Source of the DNA: an uncultured Candidatus Saccharibacteria bacterium
Lineage (GTDB): Bacteria; Patescibacteriota; Minisyncoccia; Phycocordibacterales; EsbW-18
Reading direction: 5' to 3'
NCBI GenBank assembly: GCA_964447415.1
Contig: CAYUSN010000001.1
Coordinates: 33,735 to 97,734 of the forward strand
Length of the DNA: 64,000 nucleotides
The notes beneath the pieces are model-generated. The model was given only the letters and a program-made list of their open reading frames with translations, was not told the origin of the DNA and made no database searches. Below are positions 3,157 through 44,696 of the stretch, one piece after another; the stretch's first letter is position 1; every line of letters starts with the position of its first letter. A program made the position numbers and the translations under genes.

Positions 3157-3435
3157 CTAAGAAAGCTTTGAGTTCTGTGCGCCCCCGTTTTTGCCGATAC
3201 CAGCGAACAGTGAAAGTAGTTTATAGATTACCCACCCAACTAAATAGATATACACCGGAATAAAGATAAAGAACCAATAGATAAAGAAAGCATCCTTGTC
3301 TGTAAAGAAGTTTCTTATCTCTTCCATCGGACTCGTAGGGATTAAGAAAAAGATATCTAGAAACCAAAATACCATCCAGATGATGGACAGAATCCAATAC
3401 CACCTTATAAATTTGTTTTTTGGTAGTGAGATCAT
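3157..3435 (-). CDS. small integral membrane protein (2-3 TM), hypothetical
   Basis: 92 aa, strongly hydrophobic, W/F-rich. Confidence 0.35.
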   Translation of the reverse strand: MISLPKNKFIRWYWILSIIWMVFWFLDIFFLIPTSPMEEIRNFFTDKDAFFIYWFFIFIPVYIYLVGWVIYKLLSLFAGIGKNGGAQNSKLS

Positions 3436-3502
3436 ATTGTGGTGTGTGCAGTGAAATTTAACCTAAAGTAACACTTTGTAACACTTTTTGAGTCTACCTT
3501 TT

Positions 3503-3585
3503 GGTGTGTGTAGAGATGTTAAGTTTTTAATACTCCTACTTTTTACTACTTTTTCTACCCCCTCCCCCTACGACTTCCACCAAGA
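3503..3585. repeat. conserved 3' coding end plus 3' flank shared by two paralogous secreted-protein genes (copy A)
   Basis: About 85% identical to 4757-4838; covers the last ~6 codons (WWKS*), a C-rich tract and AAAAAGTAG repeats (mRNA sense). Confidence 0.5.
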
Positions 3586-4710
3586 AACAAAAGCACCCCA
3601 GAGCGTTTTGAATAAACCTTGTTTTACTTCTTGATCTGCTTCTCCTTTACTTGCCTCGGAGGTATCTGCCTTTTCTTGTCCTTGAACAATCACAATCCCA
3701 AAAAGTGACTTTGACACCCACCCTATAACCTTTTCACCCGTTCCACCTGCGTCAGTGGTTCCTTCTATGCGATACCACTCACCATCTTTATATTCTCCTG
3801 TGACAACCAGGTTTGAACCCTCAGCATAGTAACGGATTACTCCACAGTCTTGAGATGGGCATTTACGGAACTTTGCTGAGGTAGTGAGCGTACCAATTGC
3901 ACTTAAGGGTTTGATATCGTCTTCCGGAACGTCGAAGTTGGTTTCGACATTTTTTACCTCAATTGGCGGAGGGGTAAAGTTGGGCGTTACTTGCAATACC
4001 TGATTGTTTTGAGTTTTTATGCATGAGGTTTGCGATGAATTCCACTCGTATCCAGATCGGCAATAACAGAGTTCCGAATCACCATATGAATTCGGACCAA
4101 ATTGAATCTGACAGGCCTGGCTAGTTGTAATACAAACGTCATCAAGAGCGAGGTAACCATCATTACAAAAACACTCTGATCCGACTAGTGAGGCATTCTC
4201 TGGACAAGAGGTTTTAAAATCGGTTGACGAGTATCCGTAACTACCATCCGAGCTTTTGGGAATATCCTTAAAAACCACATCCTCCATGTCTCGATTTGGA
4301 GATATAAATGAGTTTTTTGCACACGCTATGGCTTCATAGGTATTAATCGAAGGAAACTTGGCGGTGTTTATCGTTAAATAACCAACGAATTTGTAACCAT
4401 CGTCGACAATGATTGGTGGATTGCTAGCGTATTCATTAAAGGCGCTTTGAGAACTATATTCACTGCCAAACTTCCCATATTCATTAAAGATGGAATCGGA
4501 TTTGTATTCGCTTCCGGCACCATATTCATTGGCAATAGAAAGACTGTTGTATTCATTTCCAATTGCTCCAATAAATATCCACTCATCGAAGTCATACCCA
4601 AAAATTGCCATCCCATCTACATCAAAACAAGAGAGTGAAGACGCTACTGCGGTATTCAGCGAAAAAAGAAAGAAAAGGCTGGCTATAAAATATTTAAGAT
4701 GCTTATCCAT
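3568..4710 (-). CDS. secreted Cys-rich protein with SH3b-like domain and conserved C-terminal tail (GLFKTLWGAFVSWWKS)
   Basis: 380 aa; N-terminal signal peptide; NEY(G)xGSEY repeats; many Cys; 'KDGEWYRIEG...GWVSKSL' is SH3b-like; the C-tail is shared with ORF 4821-5516. Confidence 0.5.
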   Translation of the reverse strand: MDKHLKYFIASLFFLFSLNTAVASSLSCFDVDGMAIFGYDFDEWIFIGAIGNEYNSLSIANEYGAGSEYKSDSIFNEYGKFGSEYSSQSAFNEYASNPPIIVDDGYKFVGYLTINTAKFPSINTYEAIACAKNSFISPNRDMEDVVFKDIPKSSDGSYGYSSTDFKTSCPENASLVGSECFCNDGYLALDDVCITTSQACQIQFGPNSYGDSELCYCRSGYEWNSSQTSCIKTQNNQVLQVTPNFTPPPIEVKNVETNFDVPEDDIKPLSAIGTLTTSAKFRKCPSQDCGVIRYYAEGSNLVVTGEYKDGEWYRIEGTTDAGGTGEKVIGWVSKSLFGIVIVQGQEKADTSEASKGEADQEVKQGLFKTLWGAFVSWWKS

Positions 4711-4756
4711 AGATTTCTGTTTTATCTATCAGGAGATAGGTTGGGTTTATTTTTCA

Positions 4757-4838
4757 GTGTGTGCGGAGAGGTTAAATTTTAAATACTCCTACTTTTTCCT
4801 ACTCTTCCTACCCCCCCCCTCTACGACTTCCACCACGT
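4757..4838. repeat. conserved 3' coding end plus 3' flank (copy B)
   Basis: Aligns with 3503-3585. Confidence 0.5.
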
Positions 4839-5489
4839 AACAAGGGCTTCCCATAAAGTTTTAAATAACCCTTTTTTCTCTGACTGATTTTTTGCGACAT
4901 CCTCACTGATTATGTCTACGGTGTCCGTAGCCGTCGCCGATGACTCTTCAATATTGCGCTCATTGACTGGTTCCGGTTCAATATCGACTTGAACCATAGG
5001 GCGAGGTTCTTCAACGCTTACCGGCGGTGGAGGGGGCTGAATTACGCTCTCTACGGGTGTTTCTTCAACCAACGGCGGGGGTGTCATTAGAGATTCCTGG
5101 TAGGCTTTCTCACCTAAAGCGACACATTCGTCATAAACCTTTTGAACATCGTCGTTGTACTCACGGATTGCTTGGCTCTGGTCTAACAACAGCGCGTCTT
5201 GTCGATCTTGAGAGTCACGTATTAATTTTGCTCTCTCTGCATCCATAGAAGATTGGCTCATTGCCCTAGTCTTCAGCTCTTCTAAATTTTCTAAAAGACT
5301 CCTCTGTTCATTTTCAATGTCTATCGTGTACTGTTCAATGGTCTTCTGTTGCGCCTTGAGTCTATAGTCATAAGCGAGATCATCATATTGGTCTTGGGTA
5401 CACAAAAAATCCGCCTGTGCGAGAAATGGTATTGCCCCCAGAAAAAGTGAAGCTACCAATATTTTTTTTATACCGAGGAAATTTTTCAT
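4821..5489 (-). CDS. secreted coiled-coil / Pro-rich protein with conserved C-terminal tail (GLFKTLWEALVTWWKS)
   Basis: Signal peptide (MKNFLGIKKILVASLFLGAIPFLAQA); alternative upstream start at 5516; same 18-aa tail as ORF 3568-4710. Confidence 0.45.
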   Translation of the reverse strand: MKNFLGIKKILVASLFLGAIPFLAQADFLCTQDQYDDLAYDYRLKAQQKTIEQYTIDIENEQRSLLENLEELKTRAMSQSSMDAERAKLIRDSQDRQDALLLDQSQAIREYNDDVQKVYDECVALGEKAYQESLMTPPPLVEETPVESVIQPPPPPVSVEEPRPMVQVDIEPEPVNERNIEESSATATDTVDIISEDVAKNQSEKKGLFKTLWEALVTWWKS

Positions 5490-5497
5490 AAAATTTA

Positions 5498-6367
5498 TTA
5501 GCCTTCGCACGCCCATCCATCACCGTCTCTGTCGAGCTTAAATTCATCGTATCCGAGAACCTGAACCTGTCCTGTGTAGTTTGGCCCATCGCCAGATCCA
5601 CCAGAACAATCGTAATCGCCTGCGTTTTGCTTCAAGCAACCGGAATAATTTGGATTACATTGCGACGATGCCTTTGCCGGCTTTGGAATTACAGGTGCTG
5701 GAGCTACAGGAATAGGGGCAGGTGCCTTCTCCTCTTCACATACCCCTGAAGCCCAGAGGCCCTTTTTGTTTATTTCTGCATTTTTTTGAGCAAGCTTAAA
5801 CTCATCCTGATATTTGTACGGGAGATCGTAAGTATATTCATATGCATATCCCTCTTTAATCATCAGAAGGTTAAAGTTGGTTCCATCTTCGAGAAAAACA
5901 TACCTAAGTAACCTGTCATATTTGTCCCTCTCTCCCTGGGTATTATCACTTTCCAAATATACATTCTTCCCCGTCAGTACTAGTTTTGCTTTATTAGAAG
6001 CTTCCGCACCGAAACACTCTACAGGCTTCCTAGGATCAACTGTTTCTGGAGTATCTATACCAATGAGCCTTAACCTTTCAACTTTCCCGTCGATAGAAAC
6101 GTCGATAGTATCTCCGTCCACCACCTTAACCACACCGTATGCCTGTTGGGTGAGTGTTTTTGGAGAGGTGCTCGTGGCTTCTGGAACAACGGAAGTCGTA
6201 ATATCCTCCAGCACCTCTGCTTGATTGTTTTCACGACCCCAATAACTAAACCAGCTAAATGGATTCCACCATACAGCCAGTGCTAATTGTGGGGCAAAAA
6301 TGCCAAGCGCTAGGATTAAAACGAGAACTCTCTTTAATTTTTCAGCACTCATGATTCCACGATACAC
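5498..6367 (-). CDS. secreted thermonuclease (SNase/micrococcal-nuclease fold) with C-terminal Excalibur Ca-binding domain
   Basis: 289 aa; signal peptide; 'GKVERLRLIGIDTPE' SNase core; C-terminal 'DCSGGSGDGPNY...DRDGDGWACE' Excalibur-type DxDxDGxxCE. Confidence 0.7.
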   Translation of the reverse strand: MYRGIMSAEKLKRVLVLILALGIFAPQLALAVWWNPFSWFSYWGRENNQAEVLEDITTSVVPEATSTSPKTLTQQAYGVVKVVDGDTIDVSIDGKVERLRLIGIDTPETVDPRKPVECFGAEASNKAKLVLTGKNVYLESDNTQGERDKYDRLLRYVFLEDGTNFNLLMIKEGYAYEYTYDLPYKYQDEFKLAQKNAEINKKGLWASGVCEEEKAPAPIPVAPAPVIPKPAKASSQCNPNYSGCLKQNAGDYDCSGGSGDGPNYTGQVQVLGYDEFKLDRDGDGWACEG

Positions 6368-9162: not shown

Positions 9163-10782
9163 ATGAGTATTGATAAGAATCAACCAATCAAATACTTCCT
9201 GTATGCTCGGAAATCCTCGGAAAGTGAAGATCGACAGGTTCAGTCGATTGATGATCAGATAAACCGTCTTAAAGAACTGGCGAAGAACCTACATATTCCG
9301 ATAAAAGAAATCCTCACCGAGGCAAAGACCGCAAAGAAACCACACTGCAGACCGGTCTTTGCACAAATGCTCGAACGTATCGAGAAAGGTGAGGCCAGTG
9401 GAATCCTTTGTTGGCAAATAAACCGTCTCTCTAGAAATCCAATCGACAGCGGAAAGTTGGGATGGATGCTTCAGCAAAACATTTTACAGTCCATTCAAAC
9501 CATTGACCGTCAGTATCTCCCTGACGACAACGTACTCCTGTTCAGTGTAGAGAGTGGGATGGCGAACCAGTTCATTATCGATCTGCGCAAAAACAGCCGA
9601 AGAGGTATGGAAGGAAAAGCCGACCGAGGGTGGCTCCCCTCCCGAGCACCGTTGGGGTATTTGAATGACAAGCTGAAGAACACGATTGTTAAAGACCCTG
9701 AACGTTTCGATCTCGTACGAAAGATGTGGAATCTCATGCTTACAGGCAACTACACGCCATCTAAAATATGCGACATTGCAAACAAAGAGTGGGGTTTTCA
9801 GACATCGCAAACAAAGCGTAGTGGTGGAGGAGAACTTGCGCTTAGCGTTTTATACAAAACATTCGCAAACATTTTCTACACAGGAAAATTTGAATGGGCT
9901 GGAAGAGTTTACGAGGGCAACCATGAGCCAATGGTGAGCTTGGAGGAATACGACCGTGTACAGGTAATTCTTGGGCGTGAAGGTAAGCCACGATCTAAAA
10001 CGCACGACTTTGCATATACAGGACTCATGCGTTGTAGTACGTGCGGTTCAATGTTCACAGCAACTGAGAAAAAGAAGTTTATACAAAGCACCGGTGAGAT
10101 TAGAACCTACGTTTACTACCACTGCACCAGAAAAAACAAGAATGTGCGGTGTAACGAAAAGAGCATCACCCTTGAAGTGCTCGAGGGTCAAATTGAGGCT
10201 GAGCTAGAGAGATACGCAATACTTCCCCAATTCCAAGAGTGGGCTATTGAGATCCTTAACCGTGATAACGACAAAGAGATTCAAGAGAGAACCAAGATAT
10301 ACGAGGCACAGCACAAGGCAATCGTGGGCGCACAAAAAGAATTGGATTCACTAACTCAAATGCGGTACAGAGACCTTATCGACGATGAAACCTTCATTCG
10401 GGAACGTGACACCTTAAAAGAAAAAATATCGACACTCACCAACAATCTAAGAGAGACAGAAGATAGGAGTAAGAAATGGTTAGAACTTACTGAGAAAACA
10501 TTTAACTTTGCGTGCTACGCCCGTAAAGAGTTCCTTTTTGGAGACCTCAACAAGAAACGAGAGATCTTCTCGGCACTTGGCTCGAACTTTTCTGTAAAAG
10601 ACCAGAAAGTACGCATTGAAGCCAACGAATGGCTCGTACCTATCGAAAAAGCCTACCCAGAGCTAGAACTTGAGTACAATCGGCTCGAACTAGATAAAAC
10701 CCTTGATACAGCAACACGAAATGAACGTTTTGCTGAACTTATTCTCTCTTGGGGTGCCTACTGGGAATCGAACCCAGATTGA
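9163..10782 (+). CDS. large serine recombinase/integrase (resolvase catalytic domain + recombinase domain + Zn ribbon + coiled coil)
   Basis: 539 aa; 'YARKSSESEDRQVQSIDDQ' catalytic-Ser region; 'CSTCGS...YYHC' Zn-ribbon; the last 33 nt overlap tRNA-His on the opposite strand. Confidence 0.85.
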   Translation: MSIDKNQPIKYFLYARKSSESEDRQVQSIDDQINRLKELAKNLHIPIKEILTEAKTAKKPHCRPVFAQMLERIEKGEASGILCWQINRLSRNPIDSGKLGWMLQQNILQSIQTIDRQYLPDDNVLLFSVESGMANQFIIDLRKNSRRGMEGKADRGWLPSRAPLGYLNDKLKNTIVKDPERFDLVRKMWNLMLTGNYTPSKICDIANKEWGFQTSQTKRSGGGELALSVLYKTFANIFYTGKFEWAGRVYEGNHEPMVSLEEYDRVQVILGREGKPRSKTHDFAYTGLMRCSTCGSMFTATEKKKFIQSTGEIRTYVYYHCTRKNKNVRCNEKSITLEVLEGQIEAELERYAILPQFQEWAIEILNRDNDKEIQERTKIYEAQHKAIVGAQKELDSLTQMRYRDLIDDETFIRERDTLKEKISTLTNNLRETEDRSKKWLELTEKTFNFACYARKEFLFGDLNKKREIFSALGSNFSVKDQKVRIEANEWLVPIEKAYPELELEYNRLELDKTLDTATRNERFAELILSWGAYWESNPD

Positions 10783-10825
10783 GAGCTCCACAAGCTCCAG
10801 TGTTGACCGTTACACCATAGGCACC
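10750..10825 (-). tRNA. tRNA-His (anticodon GTG), with G-1 and genomically encoded CCA
   Basis: Manual cloverleaf: G-1 + GTGCCTA acceptor, D-stem GTGT/ACAC, anticodon loop TTGTGGA, T-loop TTCGATT, 3' ...TAGGCAC-C-CCA. Confidence 0.8.
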
Positions 10826-40569: not shown

Positions 40570-41511
40570 TTATTGTTCAGCAACCGACGAGCACGCCGTC
40601 ACGAAGTTTTTACACTCCGGAGTGTTTTTTCCGACACATACATGCCAGTGTTGTCCACCCTCGCTCTCGAGCCAGTAGTATGTGGTGGAGTTTTTTCGGA
40701 CCCATAAATCGTCGTCCCCGTAATCGTTGCACTGCGTGGAGTTGTTTCGTATATATGCTCCAAGCTTGACGGCAAGTTTAGACTTAAGGTCAAACACGGG
40801 TTTACCGACTCCGTGCGTTTGATGATTCGGTTCCGTTCCTCCGGTGATGATTACGGATGTAGACACAGGACAATTCTTTGGCCACTTGTCCTCAGGGCAC
40901 TTCCCCACTTCCGCGGCAAGTCTTTGCAGTTCACCGAGGGCGGCAGGATGGAGCCCTGCGACATTAATACAGTTTGGGGCACCTTGTCCCGGTTGACAGG
41001 CGTCTTGGTTGATACCGACCCCCCGCACTTTCATTGCTTCCCGCGCGGACTCTTCCTCGGCGGGCGGTGCTGGTGGTGCTGGTGGTGCTGGTGGAGCGGT
41101 ACTGACCGTGCCGCCCACTTCTTGGAGTGTCTGAAAGAGTTTGAAGTTCACCAAGTCGGGGTTGATTTGTTGCAGAATAAGAACGGTGGAGAGCGCAAGT
41201 ATTAACCCGCCGATAATACCGAAAAAGGCCTTTTTTGCGTTCTCCTTACTTCCCACGACATCCGAGGTCATATATACCACCCCGTTGTAGACAAACAGCA
41301 CAACTGCCAACAAAACCGCAATGGCAAGACCGAAGCTGAAGAACGCATTAAGGTAACCCGCGAGCCCACCCTCCGGTGCGACGTTCCCAATGAACGGCAA
41401 ATCTTTTACGAGAAGTTCGTAGTGTCCCGTCACTTGACCGAACACTACCGCCGGAAGGAGTATGGCGGCGATGAGGGAGATGCCCATGATTGTAGTCGTG
41501 TGTTTTTTCAT
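40570..41511 (-). CDS. VirB2/TrbC-like pilin-type N-terminus fused to a PAPP linker and a Cys-rich extracellular domain
   Basis: Signal peptide followed by two hydrophobic helices separated by a short polar loop (VirB2 topology), then APPAPPAPPAPPA, then a ~190-aa domain with >=10 Cys. Confidence 0.35.
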   Translation of the reverse strand: MKKHTTTIMGISLIAAILLPAVVFGQVTGHYELLVKDLPFIGNVAPEGGLAGYLNAFFSFGLAIAVLLAVVLFVYNGVVYMTSDVVGSKENAKKAFFGIIGGLILALSTVLILQQINPDLVNFKLFQTLQEVGGTVSTAPPAPPAPPAPPAEEESAREAMKVRGVGINQDACQPGQGAPNCINVAGLHPAALGELQRLAAEVGKCPEDKWPKNCPVSTSVIITGGTEPNHQTHGVGKPVFDLKSKLAVKLGAYIRNNSTQCNDYGDDDLWVRKNSTTYYWLESEGGQHWHVCVGKNTPECKNFVTACSSVAEQ

Positions 41512-41515
41512 ACGG

Positions 41516-42226
41516 TTATTCGAAGGTGACGTTTATACTTTCAGTTGCCCGCTGTAACAGGTTTTTAACGCCGTTGAGTGAAAGCTGTATATACACAGAA
41601 CTCGGCTCATCGGCCTGTGCAGAGAGCGTTCCGGTTACGGCTTCGGGGAGTTTTGTGCCGTTTGCACTCCATGTGTATGAAAGTGAACTATCCGTGCGTG
41701 ATGTTGCGGTGAAAAAAAACGGGTAAGCTTCGATATCAAAGTTTTTTTCAGTTGTGACGATGTTCCGCGGCAAGGCGCGCTCAAAAACGATGCCCTCGAG
41801 TGGTTTGTTTTGGTAGAGGCGGACAAACGGCTGTGTTTGGAGAACACGAACTGAACCGAACTCGGAATCGGTCCCGTCGGATACCTGCACAGAGACAAGC
41901 GGTGATTCTCCGAACTGCGAGCCGGAGAAGACAAACGAACGCTTCCCTACACCGGACTGAGCGCCGTCCACGACCCCCTCCCTTTTCCATGTATAGGTAA
42001 GTGTGTCCGGATTTCCCTGCTCCGTCGGAGGCAGTGCATACACAGTGACCTCTCCCCCCACCGGATACAGCGCCTTGCCCCGATACAAGGGCGGAATATA
42101 CGAGTGAGACTCCCAGATTAGCTCAACGGACGAGCTAATGCTGTTTCTCGCCAAGTTAATTTGTGCGTCCGAAAAAAGCGGAAAAGCAAGGAGGCAGAAA
42201 AGTGTTGTAAAAAAAATCTTTTTCAT
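41516..42226 (-). CDS. secreted hypothetical protein
   Basis: Signal peptide MKKIFFTTLFCLLAFPLFSDA; beta-rich. Confidence 0.35.
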   Translation of the reverse strand: MKKIFFTTLFCLLAFPLFSDAQINLARNSISSSVELIWESHSYIPPLYRGKALYPVGGEVTVYALPPTEQGNPDTLTYTWKREGVVDGAQSGVGKRSFVFSGSQFGESPLVSVQVSDGTDSEFGSVRVLQTQPFVRLYQNKPLEGIVFERALPRNIVTTEKNFDIEAYPFFFTATSRTDSSLSYTWSANGTKLPEAVTGTLSAQADEPSSVYIQLSLNGVKNLLQRATESINVTFE

Positions 42227-42753
42227 ATTTCCGACGGTGAAGGGTACATGTCAGTCATATGGGGTCTTGCCTCTCGTTTTGCATATTCCCCTGCGGACCG
42301 AGAACCCCAGTCAGCGTTTTTTATGGATTCAGGAATGCGATCCACAACGCTCTTTGTCACCGACTGTACGGTGCCCGCGGCTTTTGTAAGGTTGCCGAGG
42401 TTTGGCACACCTTTTTTACTCAGAAGCTGTATGCCGGTCTTTTCTTCTGCTCTGGTCAGTGCAATCATAAGTATAACACCGACGGTGATGGCAGGCAGGG
42501 CGCTTATCGCCGGAACGAGCTCAATAATATATGCTGACAGCATCGTCAGGAGTTTTTTAGGTGTGACCAACGGAAGTCCGAGAATTAAAAACCAGATAAG
42601 AAAAATCACGAAAGAACCGACATCCGCGAACGCCTGTCCGACAACCGGAATGATTGAGATAATGTCGAGAATAATCGCAGTTGCAATCATAAGTGCCGCC
42701 GCTGTATCGCTGATTTTAGATTCTTTTTTTTCTTGTTGCTGGTTTTCGTCCAT
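42223..42753 (-). CDS. integral membrane protein (3 TM), T4SS-associated
   Basis: 176 aa, hydrophobic core; 4-nt overlap with the neighbouring genes. Confidence 0.35.
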   Translation of the reverse strand: MDENQQQEKKESKISDTAAALMIATAIILDIISIIPVVGQAFADVGSFVIFLIWFLILGLPLVTPKKLLTMLSAYIIELVPAISALPAITVGVILMIALTRAEEKTGIQLLSKKGVPNLGNLTKAAGTVQSVTKSVVDRIPESIKNADWGSRSAGEYAKREARPHMTDMYPSPSEI

Positions 42754-42755
42754 AG

Positions 42756-44696
42756 TTACTCCACATTCTTAAGGTCGACGTTTGCCGTGACGCCGCCTTC
42801 CGTGGGTGGATGTGTGTCGCCGTGGGAAGTGACCTTTTCGGCAAGCGGGGGTACATCCACCGTTTTCTTTTCGTCCTGTGTTTTTTGCAGACGCCACTCA
42901 TCGCGTGACTTTTGGAGCGCCATGAGTTGTGACGGATCGGAAGTAATAATCTGGTCTTCCGTATACGATGCGATGGTTTTGATGGCAACGTGCTTGAGGC
43001 CGGCAAAAAAGATTCCCTCCCCCACCTCCGATTCAAGAAGCAGGTACTTCTCCTCATCAGTGAGGTTGAAGGTCTGCTGCACCAAGTCAATGGATGACGG
43101 TGATTGCTTCAAAAGCAGCTGGATGGACGAGTTGGTGATAATCGGCAGTCCGTACGGAGAGCGCAAGAAGTCCCCCACATCTTGTGTGATGGTGGCGATG
43201 CCGAGATAGTATTTGCGTCCGCGCTTTGCAAGTCCGAACAAAAGCGATGCGGTGTCCTCTTCCTTCATCATCCACCACGCCTCATCCACGACGAGCAGGC
43301 GTTTTTTGAGTGTGCGGCGTACCGCACCCCAGATGTAGTGTGTGATGAGGTACATAGCAACCGGCTTGAGCTCGTCTTCCATGTCGCGCACGGAGAACAC
43401 AACGAACTTTTTATTGATATCGACGTTTGTCGGTTGGTTTATGAATCCTGACCACGTTCCTTTGGTGTACTTGGTGAGACGCTGCACCAGTGACTCACCC
43501 CCTTCCATGCCGGCAAGCACAAGCTCGAAGTCCGACAACAGCGGCGACTCGGTTCCTGAAAAGTCGCGCTCCCCTGTGATGTCTTTAAGCGCGTAGGTTT
43601 CCGTGATGGCGCGGTCAATAATGGCGTCTTCCTCGGGGGTAAGTCCGCCGAACATGATGCGGAAGAGACCGACCAACGTCACAATCTGCGAACGCAGCAC
43701 ATTTGCGGGTGTTTCATCTTCGCGCACAGGCGGCAGGTCAAACGGGTTGATGTGGTGCTCGGAAGTAAGTGAGATGTTGAAATAACGTCCGCCCATAGCC
43801 TCGGACATGTGTTCATACTCGCGTTCCGGGTCAATCACAATGACGTCGGTGTCAAACATCAGCGTGCGGAGAATTTCAAGTTTTGTCGCGTATGATTTTC
43901 CGGCACCGGAGGTTGCAAAGGTCACCGAGTTGTAGTTCGGCATTGAAAAGCGGTCAAACAGAATGAGGCCTGAGTTGTGCCGGTTAAGACCGTAGAGGAT
44001 TCCTTTGTCGGAGGTGAGGTCAAACGACACAAACGGAAAGAAGCTTGAAAGCGGGGACGTGTTGAGCTTGCTGTGTACACCGAGCTCGTCTTGTCCGATG
44101 GGGAGCACGCTGCGGAAGCCCTGCTCTTGCTGAAAGAGCGCTGGTTTCAAGTAGATAAGACGGCTTTCAAGCAGGGAGCGTATCTCGGACTCCATTTTAT
44201 CGAGGTCGTCTTCCTTGTCCGCATAGATGGATATATAGAGACCGACATCAAAAAGCTTCTCGGTTGCCTGTTGCAGTTGGTCGCGGAGGAGCTCGAGGTT
44301 TTGGTATGCAGCGTCAAGCATCGGGTCGCGCACAAGCCCGCGCTCTTCGCGGATGTGGATCTGGCTTTGCACTTCAGCGACGCGCTTGCGAAATTCTTTA
44401 AGCACGGTTGCGGTATCTACAGGAATGATGGAAATGGAGATATCGAATACTTTGTCGATATTGATAATCGGCGAGAGCCAGTTGTCAGGCAGAAAGCGCG
44501 GATATGAAATCGCAAAAAACGTGCGGACAACCTTGTCGCCGAGGTTAAGTGCGCGCGATGACACACGCAACGCTGACGGTGCGATGATGTCCTGCAGCTC
44601 AAGCACACCCGCCTCATAGATGTCTTTCGGCAACACCGGCGTTATCTGCGGCATGTCTTTTTTCTTTTTTCCTACGATGATGTCGAAAATTCCCAT
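42756..44696 (-). CDS. virB4: type IV secretion system ATPase VirB4/TrbE/TraC family
   Basis: 'TFATSGAGKSYATK' Walker A, 'LLVVDEAWWMM' Walker B, 'GIATITQDVGDF'; N-terminal 'SYPRFLPDNWLSPII' VirB4-N pattern. Confidence 0.85.
   Translation of the reverse strand: MGIFDIIVGKKKKDMPQITPVLPKDIYEAGVLELQDIIAPSALRVSSRALNLGDKVVRTFFAISYPRFLPDNWLSPIINIDKVFDISISIIPVDTATVLKEFRKRVAEVQSQIHIREERGLVRDPMLDAAYQNLELLRDQLQQATEKLFDVGLYISIYADKEDDLDKMESEIRSLLESRLIYLKPALFQQEQGFRSVLPIGQDELGVHSKLNTSPLSSFFPFVSFDLTSDKGILYGLNRHNSGLILFDRFSMPNYNSVTFATSGAGKSYATKLEILRTLMFDTDVIVIDPEREYEHMSEAMGGRYFNISLTSEHHINPFDLPPVREDETPANVLRSQIVTLVGLFRIMFGGLTPEEDAIIDRAITETYALKDITGERDFSGTESPLLSDFELVLAGMEGGESLVQRLTKYTKGTWSGFINQPTNVDINKKFVVFSVRDMEDELKPVAMYLITHYIWGAVRRTLKKRLLVVDEAWWMMKEEDTASLLFGLAKRGRKYYLGIATITQDVGDFLRSPYGLPIITNSSIQLLLKQSPSSIDLVQQTFNLTDEEKYLLLESEVGEGIFFAGLKHVAIKTIASYTEDQIITSDPSQLMALQKSRDEWRLQKTQDEKKTVDVPPLAEKVTSHGDTHPPTEGGVTANVDLKNVE

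Follow-up and report, generated by a model that had tools for sequence, protein, structure and literature searches.

Candidate phyla radiation (CPR) bacteria are tiny, mostly uncultured episymbionts whose surface proteins mediate host attachment, and to our knowledge little is known about how these proteins are held on the cell. Here we ask why two adjacent genes of an uncultured Candidatus Saccharibacteria bacterium, which encode otherwise unrelated secreted proteins, end in the same short C-terminal tail. The genes, open reading frame 1 (ORF1) and ORF2, lie on contig CAYUSN010000001.1 in a 64-kb stretch of DNA that was analysed as a whole and is called the window below; all coordinates are window positions. 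We find that selection maintains the tail and that it belongs to a wider tail class, and a role in membrane anchoring is the reading that we cautiously favour.

Two unrelated secreted proteins share a tail and its 3′ flank

ORF1 ends in KQGLFKTLWGAFVSWWKS and ORF2 in KKGLFKTLWEALVTWWKS, each followed directly by the stop codon. BLASTP aligns the last 22 residues only (15/22 identical, E 3e-8) and leaves the bodies of the two proteins unaligned, in agreement with the initial annotation of this locus, which had described a common C-terminal tail on two unrelated secreted proteins. In the DNA the similarity takes the form of a single 148-nt direct repeat (3488–3635 versus 4741–4888, 78% identity), the only long repeat of the window besides an unrelated 31-nt pair, and its 28-nt core, TGGTGGAAGTCGTAG N GGG N GGGGGTAG, occurs exactly twice as compared with 0.00 occurrences expected from shuffles. 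Identity past the stop codon is 84% in the first 64 nt (54/64) and 80% over 80 nt (64/80), and then falls to background, which bears out the earlier description of a conserved 3′ flank of ~70–80 nt at ~85% identity. Two finer points of that description are corrected here, as the two copies of the supposed C10/G10 tract read G4AG5 and AG9 on the coding strand, and what had been read as (AAAAAGTAG)x3 repeats is an imperfect GTAG-N5-6 periodicity. A scan of the window ORFs finds the tail on no other ORF. The genes and the parts of the repeat are as follows.

3568–4710, minus strand: ORF1, 380 aa
4821–5516, minus strand: ORF2, 231 aa; the likelier start is the second Met, at 5489
3488–3635, minus strand: repeat copy 1, with the last ~22 codons of ORF1, the TAG stop and ~80 nt of 3′ flank
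4741–4888, minus strand: repeat copy 2, with the last ~22 codons of ORF2, the TAG stop and ~80 nt of 3′ flank
3571–3618, minus strand: tail 1 coding sequence, GLFKTLWGAFVSWWKS
4824–4871, minus strand: tail 2 coding sequence, GLFKTLWEALVTWWKS
3488–3567, minus strand: conserved non-coding flank after ORF1
4741–4820, minus strand: conserved non-coding flank that follows ORF2 and at the same time lies upstream of ORF1

ORF1 is composed of a signal peptide (MDKHLKYFIASLFFLFSLNTAVA, ahead of SSLSC), a conserved N-terminal domain bearing NE[YF]G repeats, an EGF-like Cys-rich module, an SH3b-like domain, an acidic linker and the tail. The SH3b assignment, made previously for ORF1, holds in part: the Pfam score of ORF1 itself (23.3 bits, E 7.5e-5) falls below the cutoff of 27, whereas its relative P0019 passes. 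ORF1 has 55 homologues (E 1e-14 to 1e-111, with homology over the N-terminal ~230 aa) from metagenomes or metagenome-assembled genomes (MAGs) labelled Parcubacteria, Nomurabacteria, Paceibacterota and Peregrinibacteria, and the members of this family have in common a signal peptide, an A-S-T-L-S-C..VDGM mature start, NE[YF]G repeats and EGF-like Cys-rich modules. The sources of these homologues also point to a CPR host. ORF2, by comparison, consists of a signal peptide (MKNFLGIKKILVASLFLGAIPFLAQA, ahead of DFLC), a helical-hairpin coiled coil, a Pro-rich/acidic linker and the tail; it is not a member of the ORF1 family, its resemblance to any relative stops at the tail, and a search of 5.8 billion proteins returns only ORF2 itself.

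AlphaFold2 models residues 25–235 of ORF1 (window ~4006–4638) with confidence (predicted local distance difference test score, pLDDT, mostly 80–95), and a search of this model against PDB folds finds nothing at E ≤ 0.001, such that this region may be a candidate new fold. No catalytic domain is recognisable in ORF1 by Pfam, NCBIfam, the PDB fold search or PHROGs, and PHROGs gives no match for ORF2 either. The ORF2 model has helices at residues 32–79 and 83–135, a disordered segment at 136–186 and a C-terminal helix at 187–221.

The tail is under purifying selection and is one variant of a class

The 18 tail codons have a dN of 0.14 and a dS of 1.31, a ratio of ~0.1. Five of the eight changed codons are synonymous, the replacements are G/E, F/L and S/T, and every hydrophobic position is retained. 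The tail is a translated peptide under purifying selection.

Of the 56 ORF1-family members, ORF1 among them, about 40 end in aromatic/basic tails, which MAFFT places in register with the tail of ORF1. We distinguish class A (GFFSKIFSSIKNFFSRIFK), class B (KWYQKIFNWFK) and intermediates, e.g., EGIFKRIWSWFISLF, with hydrophobic residues at aligned positions 2, 3, 6, 7, 10, 13 and 14. Among the members that lack a tail, three have a known envelope-binding module at the C-terminal end, which is PG_binding_1 in P0011 and of the SLH type in P0047 and P0050 (three SLH domains in P0050). The rest are mostly short forms that stop after the EGF-like region, or distant partial matches.

Unrelated proteins were searched for with degenerate DNA patterns, class B in a genome collection and class A in a metagenome collection. 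These patterns give 23 loci, in 11 of which the match lies 1–5 codons from the stop of an ORF of at least 220 aa; the complete ORFs among these 11 start with signal-peptide-like N-termini, and the 12 other loci are apparent chance matches in short or internal ORFs. Several of the 11 have only the linker and tail in common with the ORF1 family, with one further middle segment in L022 (BLASTP). The loci that extend the tail to other proteins are listed here.

L012 and L014: tail-bearing proteins of a novel Nomurabacteria family
L022: tail-bearing Patescibacteria protein
L027: tail-bearing 652-aa Trypsin_2 protease
L020, 4675–5559: tail-bearing DUF1002 secreted protein of a Bacillota MAG from goat jejunum, ending in SSWYQRLLNWFMKFFE
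L031: tail-bearing protein in which another N-terminal domain precedes the EGF-like region and tail

The earlier observation of one tail on otherwise different secreted proteins therefore extends beyond the window, to unrelated secreted proteins of CPR bacteria. A tail hidden Markov model (HMM) detects a second tail gene in L031, whose 143-aa product has an HxGRTD..GCHTC motif and terminates in QSFFKRFFGWLFR; L031 is thus another locus with two different tail-bearing genes, there with dissimilar tails. The L020 protein indicates that similar tails may exist outside CPR bacteria. The tail class is apparently widespread in CPR secreted proteins and undescribed; a literature search for a C-terminal anchor in CPR bacteria found nothing relevant. 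The tail of ORF1 and ORF2 would then be one variant of a degenerate class that is ancestral to the ORF1 family, is also present on unrelated secreted proteins of CPR/Patescibacteria, and may often be encoded in small phage-like integrative elements.

Two of the contig labels conflict with their content. One protein encoded on the L019 contig, which is binned as Saccharibacteria, matches the Nomurabacteria MAG protein P0036 with full identity, and the tail-bearing protease of L027 lies on a 469-kb contig labelled Gammaproteobacteria, which suggests mis-binning or horizontal transfer.

The tail as a proposed in-plane membrane anchor

Escherichia coli PBP5, an exported enzyme, is held at the outer face of the inner membrane by its C-terminal 18 aa, an amphipathic helix that binds membranes (PMC2909392, PMC1564421). 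The tails described here would be like those of PBP5, PBP6 and DacD in that export is by Sec with a cleaved signal peptide and the last ~18 residues are a Phe/Trp/Ile/Lys-rich helix, and the end of DacA (strain MG1655), NFFGKIIDYIKLMFHHWFG, resembles the class A pattern, e.g., the end of P0007, GFFSKVFSSIKSFFSRIFK. AlphaFold2 modelling, which had been proposed as a check of the tail, predicts a terminal helix in both proteins (ORF1, residues 366–378; ORF2, residues 187–221). The tail, 16 residues long and with a Lys at position 4, has neither the length nor the hydrophobicity to cross a membrane as a helix, and in the window tails the polar positions (4, 5, 8, 12, 15 and 16) map to one side of the helix. 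Wimley–White interfacial sums over the last 16 aa are −6.29 kcal/mol for ORF1, −3.70 for ORF2 and −3.2 for the PBP5 anchor, relative to a window background of +3.7 ± 3.9 kcal/mol, and PBP5 is thus similar to or weaker than the window tails. Of 82 long-ORF C-termini in the window, that of ORF1 has the minimum value, and just 0.2% of internal 16-mers get as low as −6.29. An anchoring role also fits because some ORF1-family members have SLH or PG_binding_1 instead of a tail; these domains occupy the same C-terminal position in such members, although they are folded domains of 45–60 aa or more that bind wall polymers, whereas the tail is a short helix.

With somewhat better than even confidence, we read the tail as a 16–18-residue Trp/Phe-rich, Lys-flanked helix that would serve as a PBP5-like in-plane membrane anchor. 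Both proteins would be exported by Sec via cleavable N-terminal signal peptides, and the C-terminal helix would hold the exported protein in-plane at the membrane surface. We infer that the tail binds membrane.

Several points weigh against this assignment. The pLDDT of the tail is only 55–84, and the Eisenberg hydrophobic moment of the window tails does not exceed that of shuffles (p 0.26 and 0.14), in contrast to class A tails (p ≤ 0.0014) and PBP5 (p 0.015). Tail HMMs score E. coli DacA/PBP5 at −0.1 to 1.1 bits, so that the link to PBP5 is one of analogy rather than homology; a PDB sequence search with the class A tail likewise gives no match. The tail could also bind a target different from the cell’s own membrane; another envelope surface or a host membrane would be the less likely destinations. 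In 8 of ~10 ORF1-family loci the tail is found on the ORF1-family gene only, which makes it mainly a feature of that family, and an anchor leaves the conserved 3′ flank unaccounted for.

The exact variant and the flank point to one local copying event

An exhaustive search of 1.84 billion protein representatives with a profile of the exact GLFKTLW..WWKS tail recovers only ORF1 and ORF2 as true matches. The third match of this two-tail profile, a 2412-aa protein, is irrelevant, as it fits low-complexity linker columns only. A tail-only profile run on a word-indexed database of 5.8 billion proteins yields one candidate, with none scored; degenerate DNA patterns for the exact tail match nothing in viral, genome and metagenome collections, which evidently do not include the source genome; and the flank DNA pattern is absent from viral contigs, the rest of the window and all fetched loci. 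The initial annotation had considered that only two copies might exist as a result of local duplication, and this is what we find for the exact variant, although not for the tail type.

The restriction of exact tail and flank to two adjacent genes argues for one local event and not for a travelling cassette. A single local duplication or gene conversion of ~150 bp would have put the 3′ end of one gene onto its neighbour, which would explain why ORF2 has the exact variant of ORF1 together with ~65–80 nt of downstream DNA, and selection would have maintained the peptide after copying. We infer both the mechanism and the direction of copying. The proposal that tail and flank form a mobile cassette or exchange site is at odds with their presence solely at these two genes, and the related proposal that tail and untranslated region move as a unit does not generalise, since at the other loci the next gene starts within 1–8 nt of the tail and the flanks are unrelated. 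An attC/integron cassette site was considered and rejected: the flanks lack inverted repeats (fold z-scores −0.33 and +1.26), and the recombinase of the surrounding island is a serine recombinase, not an IntI tyrosine recombinase.

The flank contains a G-run, GTAG every 9–13 nt, which places stops in all three frames, AGGAG, and the motif TTAAC-N-CTC-N-CACACAC, of which a partial third copy is found at 3442–3460, just before a 92-aa ORF. Its Jukes–Cantor distance is 0.18 over 64 nt (range 0.18–0.23), far below the synonymous divergence of the tail, and the flank is therefore constrained or has been homogenised more recently. No stable RNA fold is found in the flanks, the best Rfam match scores 18 bits against a gathering score of 74, the minus strand has no consensus promoter or terminator there, and no motif like that of the flank lies upstream of the SNase gene described below. 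Read-through of the TAG stop was also rejected, because substitutions beyond the TAG lack a codon-like pattern and an in-frame TAA follows 14 codons on in copy 2. A regulatory role is plausible for the flank, since each copy also lies upstream of the next gene. Read on the plus strand, a GGTGTGTG(C/T)(A/G)G(A/T)GA motif occurs at 3437–3454 and 3499–3516 (both after ORF1) and at 4752–4769 (after ORF2), and AAAGTGTTAC is repeated in tandem (x2) at ~3468–3487; these intergenic GGTGTGTG-type and AAAGTGTTAC motifs may be protein-binding sites.

ORF1 and ORF2 lie in an integrated mobile element

The window, like the Logan contig, begins inside an AT-rich island that extends from position 1 to ~10,800 (to 10824), with 36–46% GC as compared with ~52% across the remaining window. 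The shift, from ~37–46% to ~52%, occurs at tRNA-His. Because this AT-rich stretch ends at a serine recombinase that abuts tRNA-His, ORF1 and ORF2 are placed in an integrated mobile element whose integration site is probably the tRNA gene. SNase is the first gene of a same-strand run that continues with ORF2, ORF1 and the 92-aa putative membrane ORF.

3157–3435, minus strand: small putative membrane ORF, 92 aa, directly downstream of ORF1
5498–6367, minus strand: secreted SNase nuclease with an Excalibur Ca-binding C-terminus, overlapping the ORF2 start
9163–10782, plus strand: large serine recombinase (integrase; phrog_95 integrase, E 1e-62), at the right end of the AT-rich island
10750–10824, minus strand: tRNA-His, the island boundary, overlapped by the serine integrase

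Other island genes encode a DUF5659 protein, a SocA/Panacea antitoxin, an APH-type kinase and a histidine phosphatase. A 125-aa ORF with no Pfam match adjoins the antitoxin gene and, by this adjacency alone, could be its toxin partner. Overall, the island resembles a small CPR element of integrative or phage-like type.

Genes of the ORF1 family recur in elements (L034, L035, L037, L006 and L007) with serine recombinases, terminases (Terminase_3C, GP3_package), primase/AAA_25 and DUF5659, and may thus be a hallmark that characterises one group of prophages or integrative elements in CPR bacteria. A small ORF of 69–92 aa lies directly 3′ of the ORF1-family gene in at least four loci, and its hydrophobic sequence suggests that it is apparently a membrane protein.

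Window, 3157–3435, minus strand: small ORF after ORF1
L007, 7885–8094: small ORF after the ORF1-family gene
L035, 11149–11373: small ORF after the ORF1-family gene
L037, 8041–8310: small ORF after the ORF1-family gene

This gene order resembles that of holin–lysin cassettes. Adjoining ORF1-family genes in L006 (3087–3344), L031 (770–1018) and L037 (6379–6612) is a small secreted protein ending in GNYNPYTGKKGYTSPYKFRW, a second conserved short C-terminal motif near genes of this family.

Genes like those of a type IV secretion system (T4SS), encoding a T4SS_pilin-like protein and a TraG/VirB4-like P-loop ATPase, are present at 40570–44696, as noted initially. They lie in the host-like GC part of the window, 35 kb from the island genes ORF1 and ORF2, and we find no link between this cluster and the tails.

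Alternative explanations for the tail

The main rival to anchoring is that the tail is a membrane-active effector of a phage-like element, one that would insert into or disturb a membrane in the course of lysis, superinfection exclusion or host-cell attack instead of just retaining the protein; this we judge unlikely, although it has real points in its favour. Cationic aromatic helices are typical membrane-active peptides. ORF1-family genes sit in elements with serine integrases, terminases and primases (L034, L035 and L037), an apparent small transmembrane protein directly 3′ here and in L007, L035 and L037 gives a holin–endolysin-like order, and SH3b, PG_binding_1 and SLH are typical wall-binding modules of lysins. 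Some phage endolysins have C-terminal amphipathic helices, and the resemblance to them extends to a short cationic/aromatic terminal helix on a mobile-element protein with wall-binding modules. However, ORF1 has no recognised catalytic domain, and ORF1 and ORF2 have Sec signal peptides, unlike endolysins; the net charge of the tail is only +1 to +2, neither tail pattern is found in IMG/VR viral contigs, and tails also occur on large MAG contigs (130–469 kb; e.g., L022 and L027), where they may lie outside phage-like elements. A sorting signal that is processed by a dedicated sortase-, exosortase- or rhomboid-like enzyme and leads to covalent attachment is more doubtful still. In its favour, secreted proteins of diverse kinds carry the tail at their very end, behind a linker, with a basic pair (KK, KQ or RR) often ahead of the helix, and a Peptidase_S49 gene lies two genes downstream in L007/L008. 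A conserved cleavage motif, a hydrophobic span of at least 18 aa and a terminal basic cluster are all missing, however, and no CTERM model matches at E ≤ 1. The co-occurrence of a processing enzyme had been put forward as a check, and no sortase, exosortase, rhomboid or other protease recurs in 10 neighbourhoods. It is this lack of motif, transmembrane segment, basic cluster and recurring enzyme that makes processing unlikely.

A functionless tail and flank, left over from local duplication, has a still smaller probability. The confinement of exact variant and flank to two adjacent genes, and the lack of relatives of ORF2 anywhere searched, are what such a leftover would look like; yet the synonymous sites of the tail are near saturation (dS 1.31) while dN is 0.14 and the flank distance 0.18–0.23, and the tail type is kept in register across a large family and is present on unrelated proteins. 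These dN/dS and family data already largely refute neutrality. Least probable is recognition by the T4SS-like apparatus of the window, which had been raised when the tail was first described. Many T4SS substrates carry C-terminal signals, and the position of the tail and the pilin and ATPase genes at 40.5–44.7 kb agree with this. Recognition is nonetheless highly improbable because ORF1, ORF2 and the whole ORF1 family have Sec signal peptides (conserved A-S-T-L-S-C cleavage region), which the cytoplasmic T4SS substrates that a coupling protein recognises usually lack, the two genes lie in an island of foreign composition 35 kb from the apparatus, and tail-bearing relatives occur in loci without T4SS genes; moreover, no other ORF in the window bears the tail.

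Discussion

The tail shares its position with LPXTG, PEP-CTERM and other CTERM signals, as all of these follow a linker and terminate many secreted proteins that are otherwise unrelated. LPXTG and PEP-CTERM signals localise proteins to the surface by means of a short motif, a transmembrane helix, a basic cluster and a processing enzyme, none of which is found here: the last 45 aa of ORF1 and ORF2 contain neither LPXTG nor a hydrophobic run of at least 18 aa, and neither NCBIfam CTERM models (E ≤ 1; ORF1, ORF2 and five relatives) nor Pfam models match. The tail is also distinct from the C-terminal domain of the type IX secretion system, a β-sandwich of ~70–100 aa, as the conserved part is 16–22 aa, is predicted to be helical and has no Pfam or NCBIfam match. 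The initial statement that the tail fits no known sorting tag is consistent with these searches. The suggestion that it represents a new C-terminal sorting or anchoring signal stands as to a selected tail class that fits anchoring, whereas its cassette and processed-signal aspects do not.

Anchoring of the PBP5 type would here take place in a different setting. The tails are on non-enzymatic Cys-rich or coiled-coil proteins and a protease, follow long low-complexity linkers in what are probably monoderm CPR bacteria, and, unlike that of PBP5, recur as a module across unrelated families. We tentatively put forward, at a little less than even confidence for the proposal as a whole, that CPR/Patescibacteria possess an undescribed portable C-terminal tag that displays many unrelated exported proteins on the membrane surface. 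Such a tag would consist of a linker and a 12–20-residue aromatic/basic helix with the pattern [GS]-Phi-[FWY]-x-[KR]-Phi-[FW]-x-x-[FI]-x-x-[FW]-[FW]-[KR], would be interchangeable with SLH and peptidoglycan-binding modules, and would move between genes by short 3′-end recombination, as at this locus; many of the tagged proteins would come from small phage-like integrative elements.

PBP5 and related proteins have already established that a terminal amphipathic helix can serve as an anchor, and the significance of the finding is moderate in this respect. The locus described here would be a small, concrete case of an anchor module that was copied, together with its 3′ end, to an unrelated neighbouring gene. 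With a recognisable membrane-tether tail, surface proteins could be picked out by a simple sequence criterion across thousands of CPR genomes, and experiments would gain a handle; if the proposal is true, the tag could allow the surface proteome of these uncultured episymbionts to be predicted.

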